A stretch of DNA of 63,705 nt, the filler included, from Chrysochromulina tobinii (taxonomy: Eukaryota), in NCBI GenBank assembly GCA_001275005.1. It is 6 parts of 6 records of this genome, joined end to end, with 100 filler letters (N's around TTAATTAATTAA, not from the genome) between each part and the next. Parts side by side here need not be neighbours in the genome. Positions count along the whole stretch, not along the records: positions 1 to 14,115 come from JWZX01001176.1; positions 14,216 to 28,404 come from JWZX01001177.1; positions 28,505 to 31,772 come from JWZX01001179.1; positions 31,873 to 37,072 come from JWZX01001180.1; 2 more parts are not named here. One strand, 5' to 3'. A program made the position numbers and the translations under genes. The notes below the pieces were generated by a model, which worked only from the letters and a program-made list of their open reading frames with translations, had not been told where the DNA came from and ran no database searches. Positions 5,844 through 36,605 of this stretch are shown piece after piece (position 1 is the first letter of the stretch; every line of letters starts with the position of its first letter).

Positions 5844-7893
5844 TCACTGCCTCCCACCTCGGCCCTTGCCGCCGCGCCGTACTCTCAACCTTTTCGGTGA
5901 TTTAGCGTCGTTCTTAGCGTCGTTCTTAGCGTCGTCAGTGTCGTCGCCGAGCGGCTGCACCATCGTGGCCTTTCCGCTGTCCGAGTCCGCGACCACGTTG
6001 AGGGTGGACAGCTTGAATTTATGTCCGACCGTTGACGACTCGTCGAGCACGCGCACGCGTACCACGCACGAGGCGGACGCACCCGTCACTCGTATCTGGT
6101 GGGGTGCGAAGACTGAGATGTTGCGGTCTGTGTCAATCCGATGGCCATCAAGGGTGCTCCCCGGGCAGCGGCAGCCGTGATGACACGAGACCTCCGCGCG
6201 TCCCATGCCACCCGCGTACGATGTCAGGTAGCCAAGTGTCACTCGCACCAAGGCCGCATCGGCGCCCTCCTTCGCGTGACGAACACCACCACCGCCGCCT
6301 CCGCCGCCGCCTCCGCCGGCGCCTCCGCCGCCGGCGCCGACGCCGCCACCGCTGCCGCCACCGCCGCCGTCCGCATCGCTTGCCGTTGTCGCAACGATGC
6401 GCGTGTCCACGGGCAGATCAATGGTGGCGCCGGGCGCAAGCGCAAGAGCGCCGGGGGAGCGCTTGCCCGGCACGCCGCCCCGGAACGCGTGGTAGCAGTA
6501 CATGAACACAGGCGGCGCGGGCACCGCGGGCAGCGTGCGCGGGCAGGGGACTTCCAGATCGGCATGCATGCATTCGTCGAGTTGCATGCTGCTGCTGCTG
6601 CAGCTGGCTGTACGCCACGCAACGGGCGCCATGCGCTGGTACGCTCCGAAGCGGCCGCGGCCGCCCAGCCGGCCGAAGCCGTAGCAGCGCGCGTGGCCCA
6701 CCTTCGCGAGCCTTGCGGGCATGGGGGGGGGTACAGCCATGAGAGTGGTCATCAGTGGTCATTAGTGGTCATCAGTGGTCCTCAGTGGTCAATTGTGGCC
6801 ACTCATGGTCATCAGTGGTCATCAGTGGTCATCAGTGGCACTCACTTAGCGGCCATGGGGTATAGCGGCGGCGGCAGTCGGCCCCAATCGTGCGCAGGTG
6901 GTGGCGGCGGCGGCGAGGGCGGCAGCGGTGGCGACATCATTTGCGCAAATGTAGCCTGGGTCGCGCTGGGCCGGAGCAGACCCGACGTGAGCACAGACGC
7001 AAGCGCATGCTCCAGCCAGTGCGTCAGCATGGCTGCGAGCAAGTCAACCCCGAGCCGGCCGGTACTGGGATGCAGCCCGTCACTTGCCACGTCAAGCAAG
7101 GTCAGGCGCGGCGGCGAGTACATGAGTGGGGCGAGCGCCACGTCAAGCAAGGTCGCGAGTACATGAGTGGGGCGAGCGCCTCGAAGTACGAGAGGCACGA
7201 GACGCGGTAGTGCTGGCATAGGCGCAGCAGGTAATTCTCCATCCTGTGCCAGGCGGTGCGCTCGTATTGACCCCACAGCGTCAGGTTGCGCGGGTCGCGG
7301 CGATGCGCCCACTCCCGCACACTGAGGAAGACAATCGCTGGCGGCGACGGCACGTCGAGCAGAGCCCGCACGATGGCCTCGACAGCCTCGGGCGTGGTCG
7401 ACTTGGCCATCGAGCCGAATTCGAGCACCACCAGGTGCGGCCGTCGCGGGATGTGCGAAAAGAGGCACTCGGCCAGCAGATCTGCGGGAGTCGCATCGGC
7501 CGCACCGTTGTGAATGCGATGCGCCGCTGGCCAGGTACGATTAATCGCCTCGAGAAAGCGCACAAGGAAGCCCTTGATGAGCACGCGGTGCTGATGCGGC
7601 GGCACAGGGTTGTATAGCCGATCGACGCCGCGGTATTCCATGCACCGCTTGGCGGGCTGGTCTAAGCAGCCTCCTGCCTGCGCCACTGATGCGCCGACCA
7701 CCGCAATGTCCAGTGCGCCTCCCCCAAATAGATGGCGTCCAAGCCCAAGCAGCGATGAAGCCGGCGCGAGGTGCACCAGCGAGCGCTGGAGTAGCTCGGG
7801 GTCTTGGAGCACCTCTAATTTGGGCGATGGCTGCACGTGATGCTGAATCGATGTTCTCGGCGGCGACGAGAGGTTCAATCGACCCGCGCGCAT
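5844..7893 (-). CDS. SGNH/GDSL hydrolase-like protein (intron 6712-6845; apparent 41-nt frameshifting duplication near 7140)
   Basis: SGNH blocks VVGASVAQAGG, HNGAADAT, LVVLEFGSM and DGLHP, plus the algal-type C-terminal LGYLTSYAGGMGRAEVSCHHGCRC..HKFKL, spread over three ORFs. Confidence 0.65.
6712..6845 (-). other. Spliceosomal intron filled with a (CACTGATGAC)n decamer array
   Basis: GTGAGT donor and AAG acceptor. Phase-2 removal joins MAAK to LAKVGHARCY in frame. Confidence 0.7.
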
Positions 7894-8055
7894 GATGGCC
7901 GCGGAATTCTGTCGAAAACTGACGAAACATCTCTCGCGCGCACGCATGTGTTTCATCGCTCTCCGCCCGCATATGTTCGTTTCAACTGTTCGCCACGCCG
8001 CTTCTGACAGTCTTCTGACCGTGTTTTCTGGACGGGTGTGAACGTCGCGCGGCAA

Positions 8056-9606
8056 ATGGCCGCAGCGCGGCTCGTGGCTCAGGCTGCGGCCGCGTCGCGA
8101 GCGCAGCAGGCTGAGTTCCGCGCCTTCACGCGCGAGTGGAACCACTCGCTTGAGATGCTCGAGCGCTCCCTGCAGTCGACTGTGTCGACGAGTCACGGTG
8201 GCGCGCGGCATTGCGTCGATCGTGCCGCGCGCTGCGAGCACTTGCTGCGCGGGAGCGGTGCGGGCAATGGCACTAGCGTGAGCTGCTCGCGCGCACTTCG
8301 CCGGCGCTGCGCGCGCGCGTGCGGCGTGTGTGAGCGTTCGCGGCGTCACCACGAGCATGCGGAGCCGCCACGGTCTTCCTCTGCGTGCTCGCTCGTGGCC
8401 ACGCGCCACATTGCAAAGACTGGCGGCGTCTCCGTGCGTGATTGGATGCTGCAGCTTGAGAAGGCGGGCCAAGCACGCTTCTTTGGTCCGGTGACGTGGA
8501 TGCGCCACCGTGGACGCTGCGACGGCAACAAGCTCTTCTTGCACTGCTGCCACCCGTCCGACCCCCGTCCGGTGAGCGAGTGCCAGCAGGTGCCCGTGAC
8601 GGAGGCGCGCTCGATCGTCGTGCGGCAGCTTGCGGGAAACGAAGGCAGCGGTCTCGACAGCGGCGGCGGCGGCGGCAAGGGCGGCGTCGATGGCGGCAAG
8701 TGGCGAGCGGCCGTGGCAGCAGCTGCGCCCTCACTCACTTACGCTCTCACTCTCCTCGAGTTCCATTGGCCCGACTCGGCCCTTGGTGCGTGGGGGCCGT
8801 TCACTGATGGCCTCTGATTGCCTCTGACTCGGCCCTTGGTGCGTGGGGGCCGTTCACTGATGGCCTCGGATTGCCTCTGACTCGGCCCTTGGTGCGTGGG
8901 GCACGCCGTTCACTGATGGCCTCTGATCGCCTCTGATCGCCACTGATTGTCGCCGATGGCATGCATTGCAGGTAAGTGGGGTGAACCCTTCACTTTTTTG
9001 CAGATGCTCCCCCGGATGCGGCCAGCGGTGCTGCCCGGCTGTCGCGTGGTAGTGACGACGGTGATACGGGATCCTCTCACCCTTTATCCGTCGCTACAGC
9101 GTCACCAATACGACGCGATGCGCGAGTATGGGCGCGAGGCGCTCCAACAGCGCTGCGCTTGCAACCTGAGTGCATGCGACGTGCTCGGATTTGTGGCCGC
9201 TTTCCCAAACTTCCAAGGATGGCGACTCACCTCACCGCGCTGGCTGTACCCGCCGCTCGAGCACGTGGGGCATGAGCCGATGCGCCGCGCCGCGACGCGC
9301 CTGCTCGATCGTCTGGATCTTGTGGGCGTCTTTGAGCGTCTCGGCGAGTGGCTGCAGCTCGTGTGTGAGCTCGCCGCGATCTCGCCGTGTCCGCCGCTGC
9401 CGCACCTGAACGCCAAGCACTCGACGCGTAAGACAGAGGCGTGCGAACCGCCCGAGCCTGGGGCGCTCGCGGCGGCGGTGCGCGAGCACGCCCTTGCCGA
9501 CGTGCAGCTGCATGCGCACGCTGCTGCGAGCTTCGAGCTCGCGCTCGAGCGACACCGGCGCAGCGCGTCTAGGGTTGCGCGACGACGGCGTCATGCAATG
9601 GCCTAA
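8056..9606 (+). CDS. Sulfotransferase (Sulfotransfer_2/Gal-3-O-sulfotransferase-like), 2 exons
   Basis: 5'-PAPS motif HIAKTGGVS, 3'-PAPS motif IRDPL..S and DLVGVFERL. Intron 8786-8971 joins the two ORFs in frame. Divergent from the SGNH gene across 162 bp. Confidence 0.75.
8786..8971 (+). other. Intron with a triplicated exon-end/donor unit and decamer repeats
   Basis: GTGCGT donor, TTGCAG acceptor, phase 1. A 53-bp unit starts at 8773, 8826 and 8879. Confidence 0.85.
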
Positions 9607-9835
9607 AAAGCCCGCGCGGTTAGGGTTTCCGACCATGTCTTAGACATCGTCAAACAAAATTGAAAATAGAACTCTGATTTTTCACCTTCCATTTCGTCTC
9701 GTACCGGTCAAATTATTCACTAGCGCCGCGCGTAGGGTTAGGCCTTAACGTCTAAAAGGTCGGGTTCTTACCCGCGGAGTTTAGGGTTAGTCAAAAAATA
9801 CAAATACACTTGAACATTCCCGTCCTGGAGCTACT

Positions 9836-11467
9836 TTAGCTGGAAGTAGATTCTACTTCTAGCATTAGGGTTGGGGGAGATGGCAAGGGCTTGATGTACG
9901 AGACTGAGAGCTCGTGACGCGTGCTGACAAAGCAAACGGTGCCCGGGCTCAGGCTGCGAGCTTCTAGCTCGGCCGCGCTGACGGCGCAATCGGCGCTGGC
10001 GGCACTGGTAGTGCCGCTCTCGACGCTGACGCTTTCAGCGCTGACCGACACCGGTGACGCTTTCGGCAAGCTCGCTGAGGGAACTGCGGCGAGCGCCGGC
10101 GTTGCCGACTTGGTGGGCGAGCTGAACCGACGGCCCATGAGCCGCGCCATGAGCTGGCTCACTCGCGACGAGCGCGGCTCGGAAGCTAGCTTGCATCGTC
10201 GGGTTTCGGCGGGTTTCGTCGAGTTTCGTCGAATGTCGGACTCCGAGGCTGCGACGGCGGCGGCGTGGCGGCGAGCGGTGCGCTTGCTCGGCTTTTGACC
10301 GGCCATCCAAATCACGAGCCTGTGCTGCGCCTCAAGCTCTGCCGGGGAGAGCTCTTTGGCCCCACCTGCCAAATTTGGATAGTTCTGGTTTGAGGCGCCC
10401 GAGCCGGGAGAGTCCATGGGCAGCGGCGCGCGCGAGCCAGGCCTGTAGGGTAGTATATTACCGGGGCCCGGCCGCTTTTTCTTGCGTCGCTTCTTGGGCT
10501 TCAGCGCCTCGCTCGCCGTCGCCGCCGCCGCTGCCGCTGCTTCGACCGCGTCGCGGATGCCCTCGTAGCTGGAGTTACGACGGATGGTGACCGCGAGGCT
10601 GCCCGACTCGGCGGTGGCGGCGTCGGCAGGCACGGAGATGGGGCTCGGCAGCATCGCCCTCCGGCGTGCGGGTGGCTCGAGCTGCACGCAGAGCATGTAA
10701 GCCTTATGTGCGCTCGCGTGCGCCGGGCGGACCCCTGCGTCTGCCGGCGGCTGCAGCGCGTACATGACGATGCGGATCGCCGTGTCGCGACCGATGACCG
10801 AGCCAATGTCGACGGTGCCCACGGGCGTTCCCTTCACCTTCCACGCGAAAGGGTCGATGCACGTCGAGAAGGTGCAAATCGTGTACGTGCAGTCAAGCCG
10901 AATCCCGATCGGCCTGCCGCCCTTTGGGTGTGTTCTGCCGCCGGTGATGTCGGTGCCCAGCGTGGGGGGCGCCTCGCCGTCGGGCGTCTCCACGACGATG
11001 TCGCAGCCCTTAAAGTACGGCGAGACGAGGTGCGGCATCTCGTAGTCGATGCCGCCCTTGGCCGAGCCGAAGGAGACACAAATGTCTGGCTCGTAGGAGC
11101 GTACAAAGTTGAAGAGAGTGTTACAGACGCCGCGCATCAGCATGCTCAACCGGAGCACCTCGGAGAGCTCCAGACCGATGAAGAAGCGCTCGGGCGTCCG
11201 CTTGAAGCGGCCCTGCAGCTGAATCTCAAAGTAGCGCCTGCAGAAGGTATCCTGCGTGCTCACATGCACAGCGGGGTCGCGGACGAAGAGAAAGCATGTC
11301 CCTTCGAAGTAATCGTTGGATATGTGCGTCGGTCTGCCCGCCCGCACGATGACGGGCTCCACCGCGGAGGTCTCCGACGTCTCAAAGCGGGCTAAATTCT
11401 CCATCCGCTCTTCACATCCAGAACGAGGCCGTCGCTCTTGGTGTCCTTGGTCGGACTCCGTCATCAA
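9836..11467 (-). CDS. DUF1769-like domain protein with low-complexity C-terminus
   Basis: 543-aa ORF. SNDYFEGTCFLFVRDP, RRYFEIQLQGRFKR and YTICTFSTCID resemble DUF1769. Confidence 0.65.
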   Translation of the reverse strand: MMTESDQGHQERRPRSGCEERMENLARFETSETSAVEPVIVRAGRPTHISNDYFEGTCFLFVRDPAVHVSTQDTFCRRYFEIQLQGRFKRTPERFFIGLELSEVLRLSMLMRGVCNTLFNFVRSYEPDICVSFGSAKGGIDYEMPHLVSPYFKGCDIVVETPDGEAPPTLGTDITGGRTHPKGGRPIGIRLDCTYTICTFSTCIDPFAWKVKGTPVGTVDIGSVIGRDTAIRIVMYALQPPADAGVRPAHASAHKAYMLCVQLEPPARRRAMLPSPISVPADAATAESGSLAVTIRRNSSYEGIRDAVEAAAAAAATASEALKPKKRRKKKRPGPGNILPYRPGSRAPLPMDSPGSGASNQNYPNLAGGAKELSPAELEAQHRLVIWMAGQKPSKRTARRHAAAVAASESDIRRNSTKPAETRRCKLASEPRSSRVSQLMARLMGRRFSSPTKSATPALAAVPSASLPKASPVSVSAESVSVESGTTSAASADCAVSAAELEARSLSPGTVCFVSTRHELSVSYIKPLPSPPTLMLEVESTSS

Positions 11468-11752
11468 TTATCACAGTTTGCAGACCAAATTTAGGACCAG
11501 AAGAATTATATGTAATTGTGAACACCAAAGTTTTCGCCATGAAGGTATGAGAATCCCGAGCTCGCGCCATGCCTTTGTCCGTCTCGGAAGACACAAGCAC
11601 CAATCTTTGAGCACAGACCAAAATACATCAAGTTTCGCAGCGGCGTGCTCCATGCAGGTGTGATCATGATTAATAGAAAAGTTCCCGGACCAACCTGACA
11701 CTAGCGTGGAGCCCGTGTAAAATACGCAGACCTCTGATGAGGGTGTGGGAGG

Positions 11753-12394: not shown

Positions 12395-12659
12395 TCCAGC
12401 CAAGAGCGGCCGCGAGCGTTCTCGCCATCCACGCCTCGCTGTTCTCATCCTCGGCTCAATGTGCTAGGCGCTCACTCACGCTCCACCGTGAAAAGCTGTG
12501 AGGTGCGAGCGTTCACACCGCGCGCAAGAGTGCCCAGCAGGTCCGCGAGCTTCACAGCGAGATCACACTATTCTCTGATGTCACACCGCGCCCAAGCATG
12601 AACACAGAAGAGAAAGACCCGATTATTAAACAAGCCTTTCAGTGCTCAGATCCAATTGC

Positions 12660-14115: not shown

Positions 14116-14215
14116 NNNNNNNNNNNNNNNNNNNNNNNNNNNNNNNNNNNNNNNNNNNNTTAATTAATTAANNNNNNNNNNNNNNNNNNNNNNNNNNNNN
14201 NNNNNNNNNNNNNNN
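14116..14215. other. Artificial contig linker
   Basis: N-run + TTAATTAATTAA + N-run, 100 bp. Confidence 0.97.
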
Positions 14216-16093
14216 CGGCGGCGGCGGCGACGGCGGCGGCGGCGGCGGCGACGGCGCGGCCACATGCAAGTGCGACGAGTGCGGCATCCGGTATTGCTCC
14301 GAAGAGCACCGTACCAGTGCTTGGATGTTAGGGCACAAGCACAGCTGCGGCTGCGGCCTGCCGACGCCATCGGGCGTGTTTGCGGCCAACGCCTCCACCA
14401 CGATGGCCATGCTGCAAGAGTTTGGCGGAGCGCAGCGGGCGGTGGCGGAGGCGGCGCTGAGCCGGCTGGCCGTGCTGCTTGAGATGGCGCGCCTGCAGCA
14501 GCTCCCGAGTCGTCCCACCACTCCGCCGGGCTTGCAGATGAGCGCCTCAGCAAGCTCCAAGGCGAGCGGCAAGGCGCACCCAACGGTCGAGCAGCATTCA
14601 CATTCACACCCAACGGTCAAGCCTCTTTGGACGACTCATCTGTCGCCGTCGCATCCAGCATGGAGGCCGCCGGTTGCCACGGGCGGGGGTGTGAATGTGA
14701 ATGCCGAGGGTGCCGAGGTGCATGGGGGCGAGTCGCTCGGGGCGGGGGCGGCTCACATTCACATTCACACGCAGCTCGGCCTCAGAGATCGCCTCGACGC
14801 AGCGGCAGAAGAGGCGTTGCAAGATGTGGCCGCAACGAGCATCCAAGCCGCCAGCCGAGGCCGCGCCGGTCGACGCGCGGCTGCGTCAGCTCGCGACGCT
14901 GCGTACGCGGACGCCGACCATTCACATTCACACTCACATGCAGACCGCTCTGAGTCGTCAAGCTCACCCGGCGGGCGCCATGGCGGGCGCCTCACCGGCA
15001 CCGGAGCCAATGCCGTTACGCCTGCGGCGGCGGCGGCGACGAAAATGGACCCTTACACTGAGGCCGAGGAGGGCGCCCTACTGCGGGTCAGCCCCGTCTT
15101 CGTCGCAGGCCTCGTGCGCGCGATGAACGCATATCGTAGCGCGGCTGAGCTCCAGTCCCTCTGCGGCCGAATCGTGTGCCTGCTTTCGGAGCTGGGCAAG
15201 GAGCAGAGCCGGGAGCTCTCGTGCCAACACGGCGCTCTTGAGGGCCTCTGCAGTGCGATCCGCACCCACAGCACCGACGGCAACGTGCTTCGGTGGGCGG
15301 CGATGGCGTTGCTCGGGCTCACCGCGGACTCGGCGGTTCGCTCTCATCAGGCGGTCGAGGCTGGCGCCGAGGAAGCGCTTCGGCTCGCCATGCAGGTGTG
15401 CTGATTGCCTCTGATGACCTCTGATTGACTCTGATGACCTCTGATGACCTCTGATGAGGAAGCACTTCGGCTCGCCATGCAGGTGTGCTGATTGCCTCTG
15501 ATTGCCTCTGATGACCTCTGATGACCTCTGATGAGGAAGCGCTTCGGCTCGCCATGCAGGCTGCGCAGCCGGTGACCGCCCGCCAACGGCAGCAAGGCTC
15601 GAAGGCCTCGCGCACGCCGAAGCCGGCGTGGTTCGAAAAGGTGAAGCTCGCTCACCAGTGCATGCAAGTGATCACCACGGCGCCGCGCATGCACGTGCTC
15701 ACCACGACGCAACCACCCTCTTCCCCACAGGTGAAGCTCGCTCACCAGTGGCTTGTGATGCACGGCAAGCTGCTCGCGAAGCCGATCCTGGAGGACGCGA
15801 AGACGGCGGCGGCTGAGATGGCGGCGGCCAGGAATGCGGCGGCCTGGGCGGAGGCGGCAGCGGCCAAGGCGGCGGTAGAGCAGGCGGCGGCAGAGCAGGC
15901 GGCGGCAGAGAAGGCGGCGGCCGAGAAGGCGGCGGCAGAGCAGGCGGCAGCGGAGAAAGCAGCGGCAGAGAAGGCGGCGGCGGACAAGGCAGCGGCCGAG
16001 AAGGCAGCGGCTGCGACGTCTTTTAAGAAGGTCGCGAGCGAAGTGGCCAAGAAGGCAGATACAGGAGGTAACCCAAAGGGGAAACAGAAGTGA
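14216..16093 (+). CDS. 5'-partial protein with MYND-like finger, IQ motif, armadillo-like repeats and AAAEK tail (introns 15396-15559 and 15641-15730)
   Basis: CDECGIRYCSEEHRTSAWMLGHKHSC, IQAASRGRAGRR and ARM-like GALEGLCSAIRTH..VLRWAAMALLGL. Both introns are phase 0 and keep the frame. Confidence 0.65.
15396..15559 (+). other. Decamer-repeat intron ending in a 27-nt copy of the upstream exon end
   Basis: GAGGAAGCGCTTCGGCTCGCCATGCAG at 15369, 15456 (1 mismatch) and 15533. GTGTGC donor. Confidence 0.85.
15641..15730 (+). other. Cassette-type intron beginning with a 20-nt copy of the downstream exon start
   Basis: GTGAAGCTCGCTCACCAGTG at 15641 and 15731. TTCCCCACAG acceptor. Confidence 0.75.
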
Positions 16094-20028: not shown

Positions 20029-21166
20029 TCAAGTCCCTGGGCCAAAGATTCGGGGCAGAGCCTTCCCGGCATACGCGGCCGCCGTGGTGTCCATGAGCGT
20101 CGTCTTCGAGCCCGAGCCGGGCGGTTTCAGGACGACCCGCATCGTCAGCGCCAGCCGATCGATCGATCTCCCAGCGAGATGCGGCCTCGGGTCCGACATA
20201 TGGAGCATGTGCCGGTTCATCAGCATGCACTCGCCCGGAGCGAGGTCGAGGTAACGGAACGCGAAGCCGCACTCCGTGGTCGAGGCGTACTCGCCCAGTA
20301 CCTGTGGGGAAGGAAGGGCGCCGTGGTAAGCACTTGCATGCAAGGCAGGGTCCATCTTAGGTGGTCGAGGCGTATTCGCCCAGCACCTCCTTGTCGTGGC
20401 CATACGTCGGCGCCGCCTCGGGCGCGGGCGCGTCCCCTCCGCTATTCCGCACCTTGAGCACCGCCCCGGTGGGGTGGAAATGGTACGCGGTCGGCGGGTC
20501 ACGTCCGGTGGACGACGCGGCATCCACCATGAACATGTTGCCCTGCATCGGGCAGGCGCTATCGGCCGACAGCAGGTACCACAGCTGGAAGCCGCCGCAC
20601 GCCGGCCAAAGGTCCCATTCGGTATCGGTGTGGATCATCGGGAACGGTGCCCCTCGCTCCAAGCCCACGCCGCAGTAGATGCAGTCGCTGAGCGTCAGAG
20701 AACGACCGTATGGCGAGGCGTCCACGTGGAGGAGAAGCGCCTCGACGAGCGCATCGAGCGCCGCACGTTCGCTCACCTCGTCCACTCGCCACTGCGACGC
20801 GTGCTCCTCGGCCAGCTTCGTCAGCTTCGGGAGCAGACTGCGAGCTTTCGGCGCCACGATGGCGAACGCTCCGTCTGCGCAGGAACGGCAATCTAGTACG
20901 TGGCCAGCTCTGAAATTGCGGGCCGAGGTACGAGGAGCGTGGTCGAGAAGCGGCAGCAGGGTGCTGTAAGCCTGCTGCTTGAGCAGCAACGAGTGCACCG
21001 TGTGCCGCATGAAGTGGCTCACCGCCGACTGCTGACGCCGCTCGGCAAGGCTCTTCTTGTGACGGCGCTTGAAGAACTGAGACGACCCAACAAACCATAC
21101 GAGAAGGACACCAACTAGCGCTCGCGCGAGGATGGTTCCAAGGTCGTCCAAGGTGCCACTTGCCAT
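20029..21166 (-). CDS. PhyH-like 2OG-Fe(II) dioxygenase-fold protein with N-terminal TM anchor, 2 exons
   Basis: IHTD (HxD), GFQLWYLL, LAPGECMLMNRHMLHMS (distal His) and RLALTMR. Intron 20302-20386 restores the frame. Confidence 0.65.
20302..20386 (-). other. Cassette-type intron beginning with a 26-nt copy of the downstream exon start
   Basis: Intron start GTGCTGGGCGAATACGCCTCGACCAC versus exon start GTACTGGGCGAGTACGCCTCGACCAC. Ends GCATGCAAGTGCTTACCACGGCGCCCTTCCTTCCCCACAG. Confidence 0.85.
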
Positions 21167-24263: not shown

Positions 24264-26134
24264 ATGCTCTGGAAACAGCCGCCGCCACCGCCGCCACCGC
24301 CGCCGCCCGCGTACGACGCCCTGGCCTTTGCTGCCGACACACTCGCCGCGCTCCCGCGTGTGCTGCTCTTTTATGCTGCCATCGTGGTGCTGCACGCTGC
24401 GTTGCCCTCGTTCAAGTGCGACGGCTACGCGTGCGATTGGAGTGGGCGGCCGCTTCGCTACCGGCTCAACGGGCCGCTCATCCTCGCGGCAACGGTGGCG
24501 ACCTGGGCCATGCTGCCGCTCGAGCAGCAAACGTTTGCCGCCGAGAAGTACTGGCCGTGCCTGTGCGCATCCAACGTCCTCGGGCTCCTGTTCTCGGTGC
24601 TGCTCCTCCTCTGGACGCCTCACGAGCCCGCGTGCCGCTGCCTGACGGTGGACCAGAAGGCGCTGCGCGATCGCGCCGCAAAAGGCGAGGACGTGTGCCG
24701 CACGGCGATCACACCCTCACCCACCCGCAGCGCCGCGGCGCACTTTTTCTTCGGTCGCTCCTTCAACCCACGCCTGATGGGCGACGTCATCGACCTCAAG
24801 ATGCTCCTGTATGCCGTGGGCGCATGCGCTCTCGTTTGGAACCTGCTCTCCGCAGCGGCGCTGCGCGAGCGCTCGACGGCCCTCCCGGGCGCTGTGCCGG
24901 GCGCTGCGGGCATCCCGACGGCGCTGCTCGTGTACCTCGCCATGTTTGGATGGTTCGTACTCGAATACATGTGCCTTGAGCTGGTGCATCTGTATACCTG
25001 TGCGTGGAGTGCCGTTGATGACCGCTGATGGCCTCGGAGTGCTCTCTGAGTGCCTCTGATTGCCACTGAGTGCCTCTGATTGCTCTCTGATTGCTCCCGC
25101 ACTTGGCCCTTCAGACGACATCATGTGCGAGAAGCTCGGGTTCAAGCTATGCTGGGGCTGCCTCCTCTTCTATCCGTTCTTCTACTGCATCGGCGTATGG
25201 CCACTCGTCGCGGCGCCAAGGTCACCCCACACCCTCACCCCACTCCCTCACCCCTCACCCCTCACCCTCACCCTCACCAGCCCTCGTCGCTGCCCCCCCA
25301 AGTCCGCCGTCCTCTGATGACCACTGATGCCCTCGGATGACCATCGATTGCCGCCCTCATCAGGTCCGCCGACATCTCGCCAGCTCTGATGACCACTGAT
25401 TGCCTCTGATGACCATTGATGCCCTCTGATGACCATTGATTGCCTCCCTCATCAGGTCCGCCGACATCTCGCCAGCATGCGCGGCGGCAATCGCGACGCT
25501 CTTCTTCGCTGGATGGGTACTCACTCGTGGCGCCAACCTCTGATGACCATTGATTGCCTCTGATGACCATTGATTTCCTCCCTCATCAGGTACTCACTCG
25601 TGGCGCCAACCTCCAGAAATTCGTCTACAAGCGCCGTTCCGAGCACCCATCTCGGGGCGATCTCGACGCGACCTGGCTCGGTCTGCCGATGCGCGTCGTA
25701 CCGGGCACCCGGCTCCTGTGCTCGGGCTTCTGGGGGCTCGCGCGCCACGTCAACTACTGCGGCGAGATCGTGCAGGTGGGCCCCTGATGGGATGGTCGGA
25801 TGACCACTGATGGCCTTCCTCATCAGGCCATCGCGGTGGCGCTGCCGGGCTCTCTGATGACCACTGATGGCCTCTTATGACCACTGATGGCCTCCCTCAT
25901 CAGGCCATCGCGCTGGCGCTGCCGGGCTCTCTGGTGGCCTTGTCGAGCCTCGAGGGCACGCCGCACTACTTGTACTACGTCCTCCTGCCGTGGCTGTACC
26001 CCCTGTACTACGTGGCCCTCTTCTTGCCACGCCAGATGGATGATGACGCTCAGCTGTGTGCAAAGTATGGCGAGGTGGCCTTTGCAGAGTACACGCGGCG
26101 TGTGCCGTACCGGGTCGTCCCCGGCGTGTGGTGA
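24264..26134 (+). CDS. ERG4/ERG24 (LBR/TM7SF2) family sterol reductase, 5 exons: 24264-24999, 25115-25220, 25456-25516, 25590-25775, 25904-26134
   Basis: GYACD..LRYRLNG, FFFGRSFNPR, HLYTYDIMCEKLGFKLCWG, RGANLQKF, SGFWGLARHVNYCGE and DDDAQLCAKYG..EYTRRVPYRVVPGVW. Four GT-AG introns restore a continuous frame. Confidence 0.9.
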
Positions 26135-26590: not shown

Positions 26591-28404
26591 ATGCCAGCAA
26601 CAATGGTGCGCTTACTGGTGCTTAGCTTCGTCGCCCTGGGCACGCGCGCCGAGAGCGCGACCACTCAACCCTTTTATGGGCCTAACCGCCGTGAGCTGCA
26701 GACCGCGGTAAGCACTACGGTAAGCACCGTCGCCGACCTGACCAGTACACTTACCAACCCAGACATCGGCCACATTGTCCTTGCCCCCGGCACCTACATC
26801 CTCAGCGCCGAGCTCAGCGTCACCAGGAGCGTCATCATCGAGGCGGCGGTGGCAGGCTCGGTCGTGCTGGATGCACAGGCCAGCGATGCCGATGGGAATC
26901 AGCGCCGTGTGCTGAACATAACCTTAGGCCCATCGGGCGTCGTTCAAGTCAACGGGCTCAACATCACGGGAGGCTACGCTGAGGAGGTGAGTGCCGAGGA
27001 GACCTGCAACTATCCCTATGCCCTTTTCGGGATGATCACATGTTTTTTGTTTTCGCACTTGTTGCTTGCAGGGCGGTGGTGTCTACGTCGAGTCAGGCTC
27101 AGTCACTTTCTACAGCTGTCAAGTGCTTGGCAACACAGCTGGCTTTGTGCGCGCGCATGTTCAGATCTTCCCTGATCGCCCTCATAATCGCCCTCATGGG
27201 AGGCTCACGTTTGGTCGTTTTGTTTGCAGGGCGGCGGTGTTGCCGTCCGCGGTAGTGCGACAGTCACGTTCGAATCGTGCAGCATCATTGGGAATACAGC
27301 TGGTTATACAGTGCGCGCTCATGTTCCAAAGTTCCTGTCGCCCTGGCTGCTTGCTGGAGTGTTCACATGTTTTGCGCTTGCGCTTGCAGGGCGGTGGTGT
27401 CGATGTGGTGGTACAAAGAGGCGGTACAGTTGCACTCAGCAGCTGCCAGATCTACTCCAATATATATACAGATCCCGAAGTGCGCGCTCATGTTCAAAGG
27501 GCCCTATTGTGACCTCTATGTGACCTCTATGTGACCTCCTCTGTGACACCTCCTCACGTATCCCTATCCCTGCCCAGGGGGCCGGGGCCAATGTCTATGT
27601 CGAATCTGGAAGCATCTGCACCTGGGCAACGACACTCGACCCCACCAGCGTCGGTGGCTCAGTCACACCTTGCCCAGCACCCCCTCCACCGTCGCCGCCG
27701 CCCTCGCCGCCCTCGCCCTCGCCACCGCCGCCCTCGCCCTCGCCCTCACCACCGCCGCCGCCCTCGCCGCCTTTCGCCGGTGGCATGTGCTCTTCCATCG
27801 ATGGCGGCGGCTGGTGTCTTGTGCGTCGCGTCCAACGGGGCGACACTTGGCACAGCGCGACTGATCAGCTGGTGGGCACGAATGTGTACGGGACCCCAGG
27901 AAGTGGGAGCTTCTCGATTCGGTTCGATCATCTGAACTTCAACCAGTTTTTGTTCTCGACGGGTGACTGCCAGAAGTGGCTGATTGCGACCAAGGATGCC
28001 GTGCTCGGCGATTTCTACGAGAACGAGCCACGGGCCATCCTCAAATCATCGATAAGCGCAACTCCATATACAGCCCGCTGGTACCGGCGCTTCTCGAACC
28101 CCGAGGATCCCTGGATCAGCTTGACTGACCAAGCTCAGGCGATCGACGCCGGCCAAATTGTGTACGGGGCGAATAGCTTTGGACTGACTCATGCTAGCGC
28201 TGTGCTGCCGCCCCATAATGGTGCCGATGTGTACATCCGAGGAACGTCGCCGATACTCTGCACGAGCACGCCATCGCCGCCGCCGCCCTCGCCGCCGCCC
28301 TCGCCCTCGCCCTCACCACCGCCGCCCTCGCCCTCACCACCGCCGCCTTCGCGCCCTCCCTCGCCACCGCCGCCCTCGCCGCCGCCCTCCCCGCCGCCCT
28401 CGCC
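26591..28404 (+). CDS. Secreted pectin-lyase/PMP-like beta-helix repeat protein with SPPP linkers, 3' end lost in gap (introns 26987-27071, 27147-27229, 27311-27389, 27480-27577)
   Basis: Signal peptide, IVLAPGTY and GLNITGG, then GGGVxV..F.SC.I.GNTA repeats each on its own phase-0 exon. A downstream GGGWCLVRR..EDPWISL domain follows. Confidence 0.8.
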
Positions 28405-28504
28405 NNNNNNNNNNNNNNNNNNNNNNNNNNNNNNNNNNNNNNNNNNNNTTAATTAATTAANNNNNNNNNNNNNNNNNNNNNNNNNNNNNNNNNNNNNNNN
28501 NNNN
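28405..28504. other. Artificial contig linker
   Basis: N-run + TTAATTAATTAA + N-run. Confidence 0.97.
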
Positions 28505-28564
<60 letters not shown>

Positions 28565-30490
28565 ACGAGGGTCGAGGGACGCCTGCTGGCAAAGTAGAGG
28601 CGTTCAGGCTGCAGGGATGCGGGCTCGCCGCCACACACCTCCTAGGAACACAGCGCCATCAAGTTAGTAAATCAAGGATTCGTGACAGTTAGTTTCACAT
28701 TCGCTGTATCCCTCCCACACTCTTCCCCTGGTGCTGCGTGCGCAGGTCCGCAGGAACCGAGGATTAGAAAGAAACCATCATACCGGTCTCAACCTAATGC
28801 GACAGAAAAGCTAGAGGCAGGTTAGGGTGGGTTTATTGCTCCACGCCTACCTTGACATGCCGCTCACAATCGCTGACCTTGCCCGAAGCGCCCGTCCCGA
28901 AACCAGCAGATTCCCTATGAAACGCGCACCGCTCCGCGACTCGCCCCAACGACATCAGCGCAGCACACCCCCGAGCTCCGAACCACAGATGCGACATGTC
29001 CTTCTTGACGACGACGTCGCGTTTTTCCGCCAAGGGAATTCCGCAAAATCGTTGCAGGATTGCAGACCTTGATTTTTGATGATTTCTGCGGAATCCTGAT
29101 TGACACCCGGAATCCATTGACTTATTACATGTAACTGACACCCTGCAACCGATATCCGCGCAGGAACCCAATCTCGTCACCGCCCCCCCCATCAGGGGGT
29201 GGACGCGGCCGGCTCCCCATAAGGGGTCGGTCACGACGAGGACCACCACGACACCGTCGACCTACGGCGCGACGCCCCCCCATCCGGGGGCGGGCCGTGA
29301 AACGCATTGAAAAATCCTCCCCAGGGTGGATGGTTTTTCCACAACCTCCCGAACTTCCCCTACGGAAAAGGGGGGTTCGATGTGTCGGGCTCTTTGGGTG
29401 TTTCCCCTCCCTCCGCAATGGCGGTTCGGACTCTGCTTTTCTTGCGAATCCAGGGCGGAATCGCGTGATCACATGGCCATGATCGCGCGCAACTCCGCCA
29501 GCACAAGCTCGCCAAGCGTCCTCGAGGGGCGGCGGCTGATGTCCGAGAGGCAGGCCAAGCTGCAAGGAGGACGAGATGGCGACTACGCCAAGCACCAGCT
29601 GCAAGGATAACGAGAAGGCGAAGCAACGTTTCGAGCGCACGAAGCCCACGGCCTTCGCCAAGTCCCACGAGTTCCACATCCTCCAGCATGCAGCAGGAAA
29701 GCGTTGCGCCGAACTTCATGATGAAATTCGAGCAGAGCGCTCGACACCATCGTCTTGCGACGGTGTCGAGTGCATATTTGCGTTCCCTGATGGGGGCGCG
29801 CCTTCGGGCGCGTCTGTGTGAACAGGTTCGACGCCGCCGTCGTCTCCACCGCCGCCGTCGCCATCGTCCCCCTCTACGCTGCTGCCGCCGCCGCCTCCAC
29901 CTCTGCCGCCGCTGTCGCCGCCCTCCATCACCGCCATCGTCGATCGCCACCTCCACCGCCGCCATTTGAGATGCCGACGCACACGTCGACCTCGCCGACG
30001 ACCTCGCCGGCGGCCTTGCCTTCGTTATGGCCTCCGCCACCGCCACCACCGTCGCCTCCGCCACCTTCGCCGCCGCTTCCCTCGCGTAGATGCATCCGAG
30101 CCCGTCATCACAACACCGTCGTTACTCGACTGCCGTCGTCGTCACGCGACGTCGGCGTCGAGTGACTTCTTTTGCGTACCCTTCGGGGGGCGCGCCAACG
30201 GGCGCGTCTGCCTACAACTGTTGGTGGAGGTGAGGGCGGTGGAGATGGCGGTGGCGGGACAGGTGGAGGCGGCGAAGGTGGCGGCGGAGGCGGCGGAGGC
30301 GGCGGCGAGGGCGGCTGCGGGTGACAGCGGCAGTGCCAGCGCCAGCGCGCGGCTCTGGCTGAGATTGGCAGACGGTGGCGGTGGTGCAGGCGCCCTTATC
30401 GCGGCGTACGAGCGCAAGCCGGAGGCCGTCATAAGGCCGCCACGGCGACGGACAAGGTACGCCGCCCCTCGCCCTTGCGTGCCCGCGTGC

Positions 30491-30803
30491 ATCAGTGCAT
30501 CAGAGGCAATCAGAGGGCAATCAGAGGGCAATCGTTTGCAATCAGTGGCAATCAGTGGCAATCAGAGGCAATCAGTGGTCAAAGGCTCCAGAGAGCTCAG
30601 CAGTGGCACTCAGAGGGCACTCAGAAGCAATCAGAGGCAAACAGAGGTCAATCAGTGGTCAATCAGTGGCAATCAGTGGCAATCGGTGGCAATCAATGGC
30701 TACTCAAAGGCACTCAGAGGCACTCAGAGGCCATCAGAGGCACTCAGACGCACTCAGACGCACTCAGACGCACTCAGACGCACTCAGACGCACTCAGACG
30801 CAG
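30491..30803 (-). repeat. Degenerate decamer array of about 310 bp (CTCTGATTGC/CACTGATTGC/GTCTGAGTGC on the minus strand)
   Basis: About 30 ten-base units, ending in a run of perfect GCACTCAGAC units on the + strand. Confidence 0.9.
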
Positions 30804-31772
30804 TCAACGCTCTTGCAAGCTTGAGCAAGTTCAACGCTCGGTGTGCACGAACCTCGTTCGAGGGCCAGCAACATCTCGTCTGTGTTCAAAGGTGGCCACC
30901 GTCGGCGCGGCAGCAGCAGCATCAGGACCGAACACCCCTGCGTGCTCGGCAGTGGATGCCCGCAGGTCCGTGGCTCCGCGCGAATGCATGTCGATGAGCA
31001 TCCTCATGTCCCATAGGCCGATCAGTACTTCGACCGTCACGCGACCGCTGTGGGCTAGGCGGATCGGGTTTAGTAAACGTTTTAACATCCCGGAGAGGAC
31101 CGAAAGGTCGTTTGGGACGGGTCCCAGCTGTTCCCAGCACACCCATGGGAAGTAAGGAACACACACACAACGAAACAGCGCCCTTTCCTTTGAAAATTCG
31201 CGAGAGTTGAGAATAACACGATGAAGTACTCTGTGGCACACGACACATACACATCGCTCGCGGAGCGACTGCGCTCCTCTCGGCGACCACCTGCGGCCAC
31301 ACTTCCGCTGAGAGCCGCGCGCAGCTCGGCCCGGAGCTATCGATAGTCGCCGGGAGCGTGGCCAGAGCCGAAGAACAACGCCCGTCCTGAAGGTTCTACC
31401 ACTGCGGTCAACTGGCCGCTCTCGACGTGGTCATGAGCAGCAAGTTGACGATATGTGATGGCGAGCTCAGGTGGCCGATTGTTCCTTCGATCAGCAGGCG
31501 ACCAAACGTAAGCAAGAGATGCTTCAGCAGGCGAAGATATGCATGGAATGGCGCCGCACATGCACATGGCGTGCAAGGAGGAGCAGGAGGACGGTGATGG
31601 AGAGGTGCGCGCGCGCTTATGGCAGCCACACCTTTCCCGGCGATAGATTCCGATACCGTGTGCAGCCTGAGCCACTCGGGACCACCAGCAAAGGGCGCCG
31701 AGGACGTACCGAGCCTAAAGGCCGGCCGCCATGAGAGAACGCCGAAACCAGATAGGAAATGACGAAGCTAAA

Positions 31773-31872
31773 NNNNNNNNNNNNNNNNNNNNNNNNNNNN
31801 NNNNNNNNNNNNNNNNTTAATTAATTAANNNNNNNNNNNNNNNNNNNNNNNNNNNNNNNNNNNNNNNNNNNN
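31773..31872. other. Artificial contig linker
   Basis: N-run + TTAATTAATTAA + N-run. Confidence 0.97.
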
Positions 31873-34252
31873 GCATTCGCCATCTGGAAGCGGCTCTCGG
31901 CCATGCGCGTGCCGGCGCATCCGCCACCCCGCCCCACGCACCCGCCACCCCCCACGCACCCGCCATCGCCCACGCACCCGCCACCCCCCACGCAGCAGCG
32001 CCGCTGCCAGAGCCGCTGCCCTGCCAAGAGAGCAGCAGCAGCGGCTGTCCCTCGGCAAGGCGCAGTGCCAAAGCGGCCGGCGCATAGACCTGCGGCAGCG
32101 GCTCCGCCAGCGCGGCCATCGCGCTTTGTGACTTGAGCATCCGAAGCGACCCAAGCGTCTTCTGCAGCGCGCCAACAGTGTTGTGCACGTACTCCTTATA
32201 AAGGCTGATGACCTTGGGCTTGTCGCCCTTGCTCGTGAACTTGGACTGGTTGATCCGCTCAATGTCGACATCAACATCCAACTCGCTCGCCTCAACCTCA
32301 ACGGGTGTCGCGTCCACGTCGCTGCCCAGCGCAAAGACCTTGGGCTGCAGCTTATCGAGGTGCTCCCGGAGCGCGGGGTAGGCCGTCAACCGCTTCATGA
32401 GCTCTCGGCTCAACGAGTCTTCGCAGCAGCACCTGCGTGGGAGAGTGGCAGGCGCTTGAGGGATGAGACGGGATCCCACATCACTACCACATCACCTGCA
32501 GAATAGGATGGGCAGCGCTCACCATCCGCGAGATAAGTACGGCGTCTCGTTGTAAAGCGTGTCGAGCCCCTCGCATAGGCCGGGCGGTGCACCCGCGTTC
32601 TTGGCCGCGATGGCAGAGGCGTGCGAGGCAAAGCGCACAATGGGAGGGGTTCGGCCGAGGTCACAGCTCTCGATAGTTCCGAACCTGGTGAGAACCGCGC
32701 GTACCATGTTCTCGTCTACGTTTGCGCTCAACTTGAACAAGCAGACAACGCCATCGAACTCGGCTGGCCGGGGTGGGATCTCCTCGATCTGGAGCACGGT
32801 CGTTGCAAGGATCGACGCATAAAGCTGATTCATCGCCCCACCCTTGAGTGCGATCACGAAGGCTTCCTCCTGCCCCGGGGTCCTTGGATTCTGATAAAGT
32901 GATCCAAAGTCCCAGAACAAGGCTTCAATTCGAATTGCCATCCCCTTCAGAGCGCGTCGAAGCACGCGGATGCGCGAGCCGTCCGGATCCGGATCGCCTG
33001 GACTGAGCCAGCCGTAGGTAAGTGTGCCGATGCTCCGATCTCCACGTTCGACGAGCGCTGCGGCCTCTTGAGGGCTCAGCAGCGGCGACGGCGAGGCCCC
33101 GCTCTCTTCCAACTCCTCGAGCGCCTGCCGATTCGGCATCTTGAAGTTGGCCGGCTGCATCAGTAGCCACTTGACGCATAGCAACCGAATCGCTCCATGC
33201 AGAAGGACTTGTATGACGATTTGGTCGAGCTCTGTGAGCGCCTGACGCAGCTTTGGCGGCAGCGGTGTACCCGGCGTCAGCCCAGATGGAGCTGCCTCCG
33301 GCACGTCAAGGCCGAGACTCACGAGCTTCCTCTTGTGTTGTTCGCCCGCATCGACGAGAAATGCCGACCGCTCCTGCGCCGATGCACCTTCGTATGCAGC
33401 CTTGATGTCCGCGTCTGGGCTCTCGTGGGTCAAAGCAGAGGCACCCGCACCCATGCCACCTCGGATGCGCAAAATCCCCACCAGTCGCTCCCCTGCCGCC
33501 TCTGCCGACGCCGCCTCTTCCTCCGTCGCCGCTCCGGCCGCCGGCAGCACAACGTCCGTCTTCTTCCGCCTACGGTTGGCAGCCCTGGCGATGAGCTTGG
33601 GGATCTTGGTGCACGAGATGATAAAGATGTGCACGGCGGAGGTAACCACGAAGAGCCAGAGGCGAGGATTTGTGAGGAACCAATGCAGAACTATGAGGAT
33701 AGAGAGCGCGCCGTCCTTGTCGCGGTTGAACGCATTGAACGCCAAGAGCTCCTCGATGAATCGAATGGCCGGGTCGATGAAATACCCCACGGTGGCACGC
33801 GGCTTCGCCCACTGGCTTTGCTTCAGGGCACCCATCATGCCATCGAGAGAGCAGTTGCGAGAGATGAGCCCCATCGCAGGCTCACGCGTCCACTGGGTGC
33901 CATGGGCTACGAACTCGGCGGGGAAAGCGACGCCGCTGCTTACCGTGGCTGCTGCCGCAGCAAGCGACGAGTTGTAGGGCGGCGGGGCTGAACAACGGGC
34001 CTGAGTGGCATTTTCGCCGGCCAAGCCGATCACTGGGGTCGAAGCCTTGCCCAGGAGCGGATCGAGTCGAGTTGAGACCGTCAAGAGCGCGAGGAGAGAG
34101 CTGTACGCCATTTGTGCCTTCGAGACGCACGACAAGGGCGTTGGTTGATAGTCGTTGGAGACCATAATCTCAATCTGTGTACCGTTCACGTTCACGTTCA
34201 CGTTAATTTGCCATCTCGGCCAGACGCACAGCCACAGGTCCCGTGGAGACAC
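31873..34252 (-). CDS. HET-domain-like protein with an RRM-like insert (intron 32433-32522; 3' end lost in gap; start uncertain)
   Basis: LTYGWLSPGDPDP, LFWDFGSLYQ, MNQLYAS and PYLSRGW|CCCE match the HET-like pattern S-Y-x-W, W-x-D-x-x-x-x-x-Q, M-x-x-x-Y, R-x-W-x-x-x-E. Confidence 0.65.
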
Positions 34253-34585
34253 AACGTGGGGGGCGCAGAGTATCTGTGTACCGGTATATCAACTGCGAAG
34301 GGGGCAAGGGACGGCGTGCCCCAGCGGGCCAAGAGCACTGGGTTTTCTGCGACGCGTTGATTTTGTCACTTTAGGATTACGCAACCCGCGCCTACAGCTA
34401 CACACATCCGATAGGGCGTGCGCCGCGCCATGGACCCGGGGTCACAGCGTCACACACTGGATCGTCACGACTGCTCCGTGCTCGGTCTCTTGCTCGGAGC
34501 GGAGAGCGGCCGACTCAGAGGCGAGAGATGTGCGCTCTTGAGTCTTTCCCCTATCGGACGGCGCAACGGCGCTTGCGGGGGCGTA

Positions 34586-34663
34586 CCAGTGCCGGCACCG
34601 TACCGCCAGTGCCGGCACCAGCCCCGCCAGTGCAGGCACCAGCCCCGCCAGTGCCGGCACCAG
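34586..34663 (+). repeat. Four-copy tandem repeat of about 21 bp
   Basis: CCAGTGCCGGCACC(AGCCCCG) x4, immediately downstream of the stop at 34675. Confidence 0.85.
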
Positions 34664-34674
34664 TTCCGTAGCGC

Positions 34675-36605
34675 TCAGGGCCACTCATACACCGCGAGCC
34701 CCGTCCACTGTGCCATCTGGCCGAGGTGCCTGAAGGTGTTGTTGAAGTACTTGACGGCGCGCAGCTTGGTGTCCGGACCGAGGGAGAAGGGCTTGCGTAG
34801 CCCAGGCTGGTAGCCGAAGAGGCAAGGGGGGATGGCCAGGTAGCCACGCTCGTTGAACACGTCGGAGAGCGCGCCGTACCGGGCGTCGCCGTAGTCGGCG
34901 GTCACGTTGCACAGGAGCTCGCCTGTGTCGTCATTCCACAGCTCCTCACGTACGCACGAGGGTGCATGGCAGTGCGGCGTGATCACCAGCGGTGTGATCG
35001 TCTTGAAGTGAAGCTTCCCATCCTTTGCCGGCTGCACGCCCGCGCCGTCAATCTGACCGTTCGGGCCGCCGTCGCAGCCCGCGTCGCAGAGTTGATTGGC
35101 GACTAATCGAGCCTCGATGCGCCCGAGGCTCGGGGTGCCGTACGGGTTCGTTCGCTCGTCGTCGTGCGCCTCCTCATAGTCGTTGATCTGCGTCAAGGGG
35201 AGGTCGTCAGAGGTCGTCAGAGGTCATCAGAGCGAACGTCAGAGGTCAAGGTCAGATCGCCTCTGAGATCACCTTGGCAGCCACATTGGCGATCAGAGGG
35301 TTCGATCCGTGGGCACCTCACCTGCGCATCTATGAGAAAGACCCAGTGGTGCAGGAGCTGGTGCGATGCGGATGCAGATGGGGGTTGGGCTGGCCGGTAG
35401 GTCTGGAAGTAGTACCGGAACTTGAGGTAGTAACGGTCGACAAGGTCCTCGCGGAGGTAGGGCTGCTGGGCCTTGTCAGTGAGCAAAAAGGTGTGCTGGC
35501 AGCAGAACGTGCCGCCGTGGTACGTGGTCACATTGCATGCGGCGTTCGGACCGTTTGTGCCGACTCCGTTTCCATGACGAAGCATGTCGCCCCGCGGCTC
35601 GTCATTGCAGTCGTGGTGGTAGTCCACCCTGACGGTGCGATCGTCCTGGGTGTACAGCACGTAGCTCTCACCTGGGTCATCAGAGGTCATCAGAGGTCAT
35701 CAGAGGTCATCAGAGGTCATCAGAGGTCATCAGTGGGTGAACAGCACGTAGCTCTCACCGCTCGTCTCGTTCACATGCTTCGTGATGCGGTCGGTGCAAG
35801 GGCACTCGAGCAGCGGAGACGAGCCCGAGTAGAGCTCGGTCACCGAGCCGTTGCCTGACGCGGCCGGGAGCAGCCACTGCTTGTACCCCACTTGGTCGGT
35901 GAGCTGCGTGCCGTCGCGCGGGTGCGTGTCGATCTGCATGGGCTCGAAGATCCAGGTCGTGGGCTCGTGCAGGAGCTGCGCGTAGCCGCTCGGGTAGCCG
36001 TGGTATGACTTGCGGTACTCGCCGCCCGGGTTCTCCTTGAAGACGATGCTTGACGGTACGCCCTGCGGGTTTGCCTCCACCTCGCGCACGCCCGTCCAGG
36101 ACGGGTTGGGATACTTGCCCGGCCGCTCGAGGTCGTAGACCTCGGCGCCCGAGCCGACTAGCCACGCAAAGTAGTGGTGGTTGTAGGCGTGGTAGGTGGG
36201 CACCGACCGGTCACTCGCGTCGCACGACGGGTAGCATGAGAAGCCGCCCAGCTTGTCGCCCGGAGGCGGCGGGGGTGCGTTGTCGTGCGTGACCTGATCG
36301 ATCTCGTAGCCGGTGATCGCCATGACGCCACCGTTGGCGAAGCGCTTGACAAGCTCCTCGGGCAGCGGGATGGGCGCGTTGCGCGTCCAGTACGTCTGAG
36401 AGTAGATCGTGCGCACCTCGCCGTACATGTCAAAGTGCTCGACCGGGCCAGCGATGTTGGCCTCAAAGTCGGTCGAGTAGGGCGCGGCCGCAGCCGAATC
36501 GGGGTTGGAGATACGGTATGGGACGCCGCCCGCGTTCATAACCTTGGCCGATGCATGATGGAGATAGAGGAGGCTGGGGAGGACAGCCCCGAGTTGCTGC
36601 CGCAT
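34675..36605 (-). CDS. Secreted protein with PHM/DBH/SURNod19-like copper-monooxygenase motifs, 3 exons (introns 35672-35758 and 35188-35321)
   Basis: Signal-like leader, YNHHY, GGEYRKSYHGYP, HCHAPSC and HLGQMAQW. Both introns restore the frame. Confidence 0.7.
35672..35758 (-). other. Decamer-repeat intron beginning with a 25-nt copy of the downstream exon start
   Basis: GTGAGAGCTACGTGCTGT(T/A)CACCCA is duplicated. The filler is (CTGATGACCT)5 followed by CTGATGACCCAG. Confidence 0.9.

Follow-up and report, generated by a model that had tools for sequence, protein, structure and literature searches.

Nine introns in a stretch of GC-rich DNA from Chrysochromulina tobinii, a freshwater haptophyte (assembly GCA_001275005.1; six parts of six records joined end to end, 63,705 nucleotides (nt) in all, hereafter the window) had been described in an initial annotation as holding near-exact copies of the adjoining exon edge. 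Five of the nine (15396, 15641, 20302, 25517 and 35672, each named by its first position) are clean examples, in which a 20–27 nt copy of an exon edge provides one splice site and lies beside a filler built of repeats. The description fits the other four less well, as 6712 is decayed, and 8786, 25221 and 25776 are composites with copies that are partly or wholly internal. The feature is real and represents a variant of known routes of intron gain, and it is probable that at least some of the clean introns were gained. Two further filler introns that had not been listed earlier (25000–25114 and 35188–35321) are without an exon copy, and bring the number of introns examined to 11.

All coordinates were verified by translation and alignment. 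The evidence was drawn from the window itself, from RNA and DNA contigs of public sequencing runs (X numbers), from seven orthologous loci (L001–L007), and from database open reading frames (ORFs; P numbers) of other strains. The latter were called on unspliced DNA, so that a read-through indicates that an intron is absent, and a break that it is present. The five clean cases are as follows.

15396–15559, plus strand: clean intron of the MYND gene; the 27-nt upstream exon end (15369–15395) is copied at 15533–15559 and supplies CAG
15641–15730, plus strand: in-frame, 90-nt intron-like insert with the second filler family, polymorphic; a 20-nt copy (15641–15660) of 15731–15750 supplies GT
20302–20386, minus strand: clean intron with the second filler family; a 26-nt copy (20361–20386) of 20276–20301, with 2 mismatches, supplies GT
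25517–25589, plus strand: clean intron of the sterol reductase gene; a 24-nt copy (25517–25540) of 25590–25613 supplies GT, and the filler supplies the acceptor
35672–35758, minus strand: clean intron with a 10-mer array; a 25-nt copy (35734–35758) of 35647–35671, with 1 mismatch, supplies GT

In all five, the copy stands at an intron end and supplies GT where the downstream exon start was copied or CAG where the upstream exon end was copied, as originally proposed, and alignment confirms the duplication lengths of 20, 24, 25, 26 and 27 nt. Intron 15396 carries a second copy of the 27-nt exon end at 15456–15482 (1 mismatch). At 35672 the allele P0203 has a copy free of mismatches, and P0202 has a shorter one. 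By hand count, about half of the mismatches between copies and exons fall at third codon positions, which matches neutral drift on both sides. A scan of the window for GT..AG introns with edge copies returned 38 rows, of which 27 came from one coding tandem array; the remaining 11 include the five clean introns and the inner unit of 25221. Shuffled versions (n = 6) gave 0–1 rows each, a control that also destroys tandem arrays. The gene names given initially are less secure than the structures, Pfam confirming only the sterol reductase (ERG4_ERG24) and MYND; ORF P0196 had no match among solved structures.

Exact splicing had been claimed for these introns, and RNA contigs bear this out for four of the nine listed (15396, 25221, 25517 and 25776); 15641 is retained in the one RNA contig that covers it (see below). 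The RNA contigs of X13 and X17, both from one study, show exact GT..AG joints at 25000, 25221, 25517 and 25776, those of X16 also join 25221 and 25776, and 15396 is spliced exactly in an X13 contig. Splicing of 20302 is suggested by one X16 contig that divides at this position, its two flanks being equally deep; X13 contigs, which enter the intron from either side, retain it. Runs X19–X21 held next to none of the words. Among the orthologous loci, L004 and L005 are identical to the window, letter for letter, in all six introns that they cover, as are L002 in four and L003 in three, and these four loci probably represent the window's own strain. L001 and L007 belong to another strain, and carry introns 25517 and 25776.

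Presence/absence polymorphism is seen at 15641, for which 15 of the 27 cluster members are listed: 11 of these 15 alleles have the insert and four are empty, with a single copy of the target. The four empty alleles begin inside intron 15396, which shows that they derive from unspliced sequence, and they were recovered on 15 contigs that come from two sources and measure up to 21,235 nt. ORF P0261 belongs to a separate cluster, is 82% identical in the main block and lies on a contig of 8,646 nt; it is uninterrupted at 15396 as well as at 15641 and keeps one copy. Similarly, P0135 (71% identical, starting with an intron read-through) is unbroken across 25221, 25517 and 25776, and P0009 crosses 25000 and 25221 without a break. 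At the protein level, intron-less orthologues thus retain a single target copy at 15641, 15396, 25221, 25517 and 25776, which is the comparison that the initial annotation had called for. Introns 35672, 20302 and 6712 are present in every informative allele listed (15, 13 and 13, respectively). For 35672, all 15 listed exon-2 ORFs start inside the intron; about 250 residues found in homologues are missing directly upstream of it (35759–35790, minus strand), and because of these extra residues beside the site the homologues cannot be used to date the intron. The same homologues run uninterrupted through 35188–35321. Intron 20302 occurs in 13 of 13 informative listed ORFs, with four alleles altered in the 5' part; P0302–P0304 and L006 read through this site, but may be transcripts. 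At 6712, 13 of 17 listed ORFs stop at the intron and none reads through, the other four ending earlier at a frameshift.

The filler is not one repeat. A single system with a single repeat had been proposed, but at least three fillers occur in the window, namely a 10-mer, a GCATGC...CCCCACAG type (15641 and 20302), and a CCCTCA run (25221), and three of the listed cases are later duplications, described below. The second family, shared by 15641 and 20302, has a unit of about 27 nt that ends in CCCCACAG. A fourth filler, another 10-mer, is flanked by a 39-nt duplication in L008, a contig filed as viral. All fillers are high-copy or built of repeats. The 10-mer repeat is clearly genome-wide: unique sequence has a depth of about 45, whereas the summed contig depth over the 10-mer is 47,749 in a single bin of X8 and 219,861 in a single bin of X12, although these sums are not copy numbers. 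The 11 introns, when aligned, range from 73 to 235 nt and have filler and some 3' ends in common rather than their whole length. These 3' family ends recur widely, with 42 and 30 contigs diverging just behind 25457 and 25904, respectively, and sub-variants of the filler are common to several introns.

The filler units are well suited to splicing. A filler unit, when reverse-complemented, gives the common acceptor end, and a unit is one base away from a GTGAGT donor. Words of the form CT[G/C/A]A[C/T], which we take to be branch-point-like, number 70 in the sense and 11 in the antisense direction within the 11 introns (the two bounds used for 35188 being slightly off), compared with 30 and 26 in 7.7 kb of exon; intron 20302 has none. 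Given this richness of the sense strand, the orientation of the filler follows from selection for splicing, and no enzyme is required to impose it. Scans for filler patterns in viral contigs gave 0, 1, 0, 1 and 0 stretches, representing the one locus L008, and in prokaryote genomes only two stray contigs, L009 and L010, the latter being a filler intron with only AG/GT repeated. L008, L009 and L010, filed as bacterial or viral, are probably misbinned eukaryotic DNA. Two other repeats in the window may be noted here. Four introns of a repeat-domain gene (26988–27578) have a different start motif in common, and the last of them holds an 11-mer array that resembles the 10-mer filler. A 42-nt tandem repeat (45419–45517), which encodes the C-terminus in an Asp/Asn beta-hydroxylase gene, was considered as a filler insert outside an intron and rejected, as the same words are coding in a related lineage; it is an ordinary duplication, and the related lineage has a shorter end.

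Terminal inverted repeats, which had been reported as lacking, are indeed absent from the aligned introns (end-complementarity scores of 6–13, the best being a 6-nt match at 25776), and neither insert end in these introns carries poly-A or any other tail. Either end of the intron can be the variable one. Junctions were tested with a unit profile taken from arrays without copies and a two-sided null. At eight junctions the copy and filler overlap by 5, 0, 5, 1, 2, 2, 2 and 3 bases, a total of 20 compared with 8.0 ± 3.5 expected (P = 0.004). This replaces a first test of microhomology (25 versus 4.4), which took its consensus from the same introns, used a one-sided null and overstated the effect. 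The exon sequence past the copy resembles filler at 15641 and 25776. Intron 35672 finishes with six bases identical to those of the exon at the copy end, so that the acceptor hexamer there is as a second local switch would give. No reverse transcriptase (RT) or transposase family was found by Pfam among the 26 long ORFs of the window, nor was a polymerase or a template RNA found in the window.

The remaining filler-bearing features are decayed, composite or free of exon copies.

6712–6845, minus strand: decayed intron with 10-mer filler; an upstream exon-end copy at 6712–6737 (original 6846–6866) supplies the acceptor
8786–8971, plus strand: composite intron; the downstream exon-start copy has decayed to 16/23, and 53-nt units at 8826 and 8879 repeat 13 nt of the upstream exon
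25000–25114, plus strand: filler intron, intron 1 of the sterol reductase gene; no exon copy
25221–25455, plus strand: composite intron of the sterol reductase gene, with CCCTCA filler, a decayed copy of both exon edges (25280–25309), 10-mer filler and a 92-nt unit
25776–25903, plus strand: composite intron of the sterol reductase gene with its own donor; an internal 30-nt copy (25827–25856) of the downstream exon start
30490–30800, minus strand: 10-mer filler array of thirty units, no exon copy; open on the plus strand within a 343-residue ORF with no Pfam match
35188–35321, minus strand: filler intron, no exon copy; the filler differs among strains (read-through tails P0174–P0188)

The copy at 6712 differs from the upstream exon end by 3 substitutions and a longer C run, and removal of the intron restores the frame. 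Within the same gene, 7101–7190 (minus strand) is a tandem duplication that contains no filler and has lost an internal part; it adds a net 41 nt and shifts the frame. It is carried by four of the 17 listed ORFs, while 12 read through, and its occurrence in only some strains indicates that local duplication is active. The array at 30490–30800 may be an intron on the minus strand or an exonised array. A stretch of P0261 (residues ~300–325) is in frame, resembles antisense 10-mer filler and is flanked by a repeated tripeptide; to judge by its sequence, it may be a filler insert that came with a duplication and has remained part of the coding sequence. The corresponding region falls past the gap in the window.

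The composites reveal a second process, in which existing introns change, by addition or loss, in their number of exon-plus-filler units, and copies decay afterwards. The 92-nt unit of 25221 (25364–25455) consists of a 21-nt exon copy plus filler, and L001 and L007 are without it; at 8786, the number of units is lower by one in alleles P0209 and P0216. At 25776 the 30-nt copy sits between two filler acceptors and supplies neither splice site, and a base change within it creates a GT nine bases past the inner acceptor. Gene model P0128, labelled Chrysochromulina parva and a member of the cluster of the sterol-reductase exon 1, has three extra residues at this point, as would result from removal of the composite in two pieces, whereas the RNA contigs show it removed as a single intron. 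Introns 8786, 25221 and 25776 are later duplications across the edge of a pre-existing intron, and two of the three vary in unit number. Secondary duplications within introns are found at 8786, 15396, 25221 and 25776.

As the initial annotation had argued from the long, variable duplications and the lack of inverted ends, insertion by a staggered break or by template copying is the best class of mechanism; the single-copy empty sites support gain. The form of it we favor, with moderate confidence, is that staggered breaks in exons are repaired by copying an abundant intron repeat, and that the products are filtered by selection for exact splicing. Two nicks 20–27 nt apart, or an equivalent template switch, would open the exon, and fill-in of the overhangs would duplicate the target. 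One end would then anneal by a few bases to an abundant intron repeat, copy 50–70 nt and rejoin. The repeat would bring, as can be read in the introns themselves, branch-point-like words and usually one splice site, and the duplicated exon edge would bring GT or CAG. Selection would retain inserts that are spliced exactly or in frame, so fixing the orientation and the ends. Later, introns already in place would gain or drop units at their edges, as the variation between strains exemplifies, with subsequent decay of the copies, and the same accident at an intron edge would give rise to composites. The likely actor would be a theta-type end-joining polymerase, and presumably no dedicated enzyme is needed.

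A number of observations weigh against gain by such repair. The sample is only 11 introns. When just the weakest junction per gene is counted, the overlap (8 versus 5.0) is not significant (P = 0.18), and the 35672 junction scores 0 under the independent profile. Repair more usually copies a nearby template than a distant one, and neither 15641 nor 20302 has a donor of the same family nearby. The 90-nt insert at 15641 is retained, with the frame kept, in the sole RNA contig that covers it. The 15641 alleles that lack the intron are spread over two flanking haplotypes, and it may therefore have been lost more than once, between the 22-nt repeats. For P0261 and P0135 we infer a DNA origin from contig size and read-through. 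Lastly, P0305, a relative at 70%, stops no more than about four codons away from 20302, and in the relatives P0003, P0009 and P0135, introns lie at distances of about 2, 6 and 8 nt to 25000 and 25517 (as placed from proteins only), so that some sites may be old and shifted. The near-coincident introns of P0003, P0009, P0135 and P0305 are apparently off the window positions, and would be either parallel gains or the result of sliding.

The strongest competitor, which we consider unlikely but by no means negligible, is that the RT of a retro-element copies excised intron RNA into nicked exons by target priming. Priming at the 3' end would give an exact acceptor and a truncated 5' end, internal priming with run-off would give an exact donor and a truncated 3' end, and the position of the second nick would set the variable duplication. 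Each clean insert does have one end at a splice site and one that varies, the 3' family ends common to many loci (the 42 and 30 contigs above) fit such priming, and any abundant intron could serve as template, which would explain both the several fillers and the distant donors. Variable duplications are, in the available part of PMC9977147, a mark of non-long-terminal-repeat (non-LTR) and Penelope-like insertion. However, an exact end is demanded in exons by selection alone, so that DNA and RNA templating look alike there; neither insert end has a tail, the acceptor of 35672 matches the local exon rather than a family end, and the long ORFs of the window include no RT. Should intron RNA be copied into staggered nicks in this way, by an RT or a repair polymerase, with a long target duplication to supply the missing splice site, intron gain would be ongoing, self-amplifying and RNA-templated, with any abundant intron able to seed new ones, and would still be polymorphic in lakes.

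It is rather improbable that there was no gain at all, and that old filler introns were instead remodelled by slippage at their edges, exact loss of a unit or of a whole intron leaving the clean pattern. Such remodelling would have 8786, 25221 and 25776, which vary in unit number, as its expected intermediates, and would accommodate the two filler introns without a copy, the break in P0305, the near-coincident introns of relatives and the two haplotypes of the intron-less alleles. It needs two events for each clean intron, though, along with the loss of two introns in P0261 and of three in P0135. In addition, the 92-nt unit at 25221 lacks, in both strains, three changes carried by the neighboring unit, and so is not a recent copy of its neighbor.

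Non-autonomous, copy-and-paste DNA elements that resemble Replitrons, make variable duplications and have been co-opted as introns are improbable as the source. Duplications of variable length at RG targets and a fuzzy end are known from Replitron-1, and one Replitron locus is reported in C. tobinii (PMC10288648, available in part); RG precedes the donor at four of the five clean sites. RG before GT is an ordinary splice context, however, and 35672 has CG; nor do the introns have common terminal direct repeats, a constant element length or two fixed ends. Still less credible is a telomerase-like enzyme that adds 10-mers from a small RNA at breaks. The six near-perfect units of 35672, all in one orientation, would suit it, but at least four fillers with different periods, as well as the non-repeat family ends, would not. 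Several unrelated fillers cannot derive from a single small RNA templating one 10-mer, as had been envisaged, and the sub-variants common to introns point to the copying of existing arrays. An assembly artefact, raised at the outset as a possible explanation of the duplications and conceivable also for the empty alleles by collapse of the 22-nt repeat (short repeats being collapsible at small k), is very improbable, since the duplications recur in separate assemblies, in unitigs and in other strains, the empty 15641 alleles stand on many contigs from two sources, and none of the alleles listed for 35672, 20302 and 25517 is collapsed.

These introns resemble several known systems. The neointrons of Daphnia pulex, attributed to repair of staggered double-strand breaks, share repeats of 4–12 bp with their exons in 33 cases (PMC4202315, in the part available, as for all papers cited here). 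As in the present introns, the exon edge is repeated at the far end, presence is polymorphic, young introns receive later staggered insertions and, as may also be so here, parallel gains lie within 10 nt of each other (PMC4202315). The Daphnia inserts are mostly AT-rich and of unknown source, whereas here the duplications are 20–27 nt and the inserts belong to high-copy, GC-balanced repeat families. Repeats of 4–30 bp near 213 introns are described in PMC11782384, and further material for comparison is found in PMC11282704 and, on introns, PMC4580454.

Introners resemble the introns of the window in that the insert brings one splice site and the duplication the other, messenger RNA length is unchanged, and sequence is common to introns of unrelated genes. 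Some classes in Polarella and Symbiodinium take one splice site from the duplication, which is 3–8 nt in Polarella (bioRxiv 10.1101/2020.10.14.339549); Introner duplications are otherwise given as 3–9 bp and fixed per family, with 4 bp for a family of a marine Chrysochromulina sp. (PMC9860276). Unlike Introners, with their fixed short duplication, two defined ends and often inverted repeats, the introns described here have duplications of variable length, one ragged end and a body that is a variable array, and they are not alike from end to end. A 2025 survey lists 0 Introner families for C. tobinii (PMC12130899). The system therefore sits between the break-repair introns of Daphnia and the Introners, and departs from both in duplication length, and from Introners also in its ends.

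Insertions of non-LTR and Penelope-like elements have one fixed and one truncated end. They share with the present introns flanking duplications of variable length (PMC9977147), but here there is no tail and no known element, the inserts are 50–70 nt, and either end can be truncated. Microhomology at the truncated end is another trait of such insertion, on which the junction values above (P = 0.004 for all eight, P = 0.18 for the weakest per gene) diverge. Replitron-1 and N1 of Chlamydomonas likewise combine a variable duplication with a fuzzy end and insert in one orientation after RG, a context seen at four of the five clean sites but also normal for splice sites; they are, however, 0.9–3.6 kb in length, have terminal direct repeats and are rare in coding sequence, none of which applies here (PMC10288648). 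In gain by tandem genomic duplication, duplicated exon sequence also supplies the splice sites (PMC3296678); here, by contrast, the copies are separated by a foreign repeat, from which the branch region and one splice site come. Literature searches turned up, among openly accessible papers, no account of haptophyte introns that pair a long copy of an exon edge with a repeat filler.

The origin of introns is a long-standing question. Most proven bursts were made by transposons with short, fixed duplications, and break-repair gains have been described without a known source sequence. In the present introns both can be seen, a probable source in the form of abundant intron repeats rich in branch-point-like words, and a long footprint. 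Presence is still polymorphic at one site, and the alga is available in culture, which makes direct tests of the mechanism feasible. Because a unique copy of exon sequence makes up half of each such intron, and the remainder is of variable length, Introner surveys based on similarity are likely to miss them, and the introns may represent a route of gain that standard surveys have passed over. Gene models also mis-cut introns of this kind, as P0128 does at 25776.

Two further features of the window lie apart from these introns. A 793-residue ORF on the minus strand (3306–5687) shows a weak match, below the curated cut-off, to an ADP-ribosyltransferase family. A 359-nt repeat occurs twice at 61135–61835, the copies being 93% alike, in sequence of lower G+C content.

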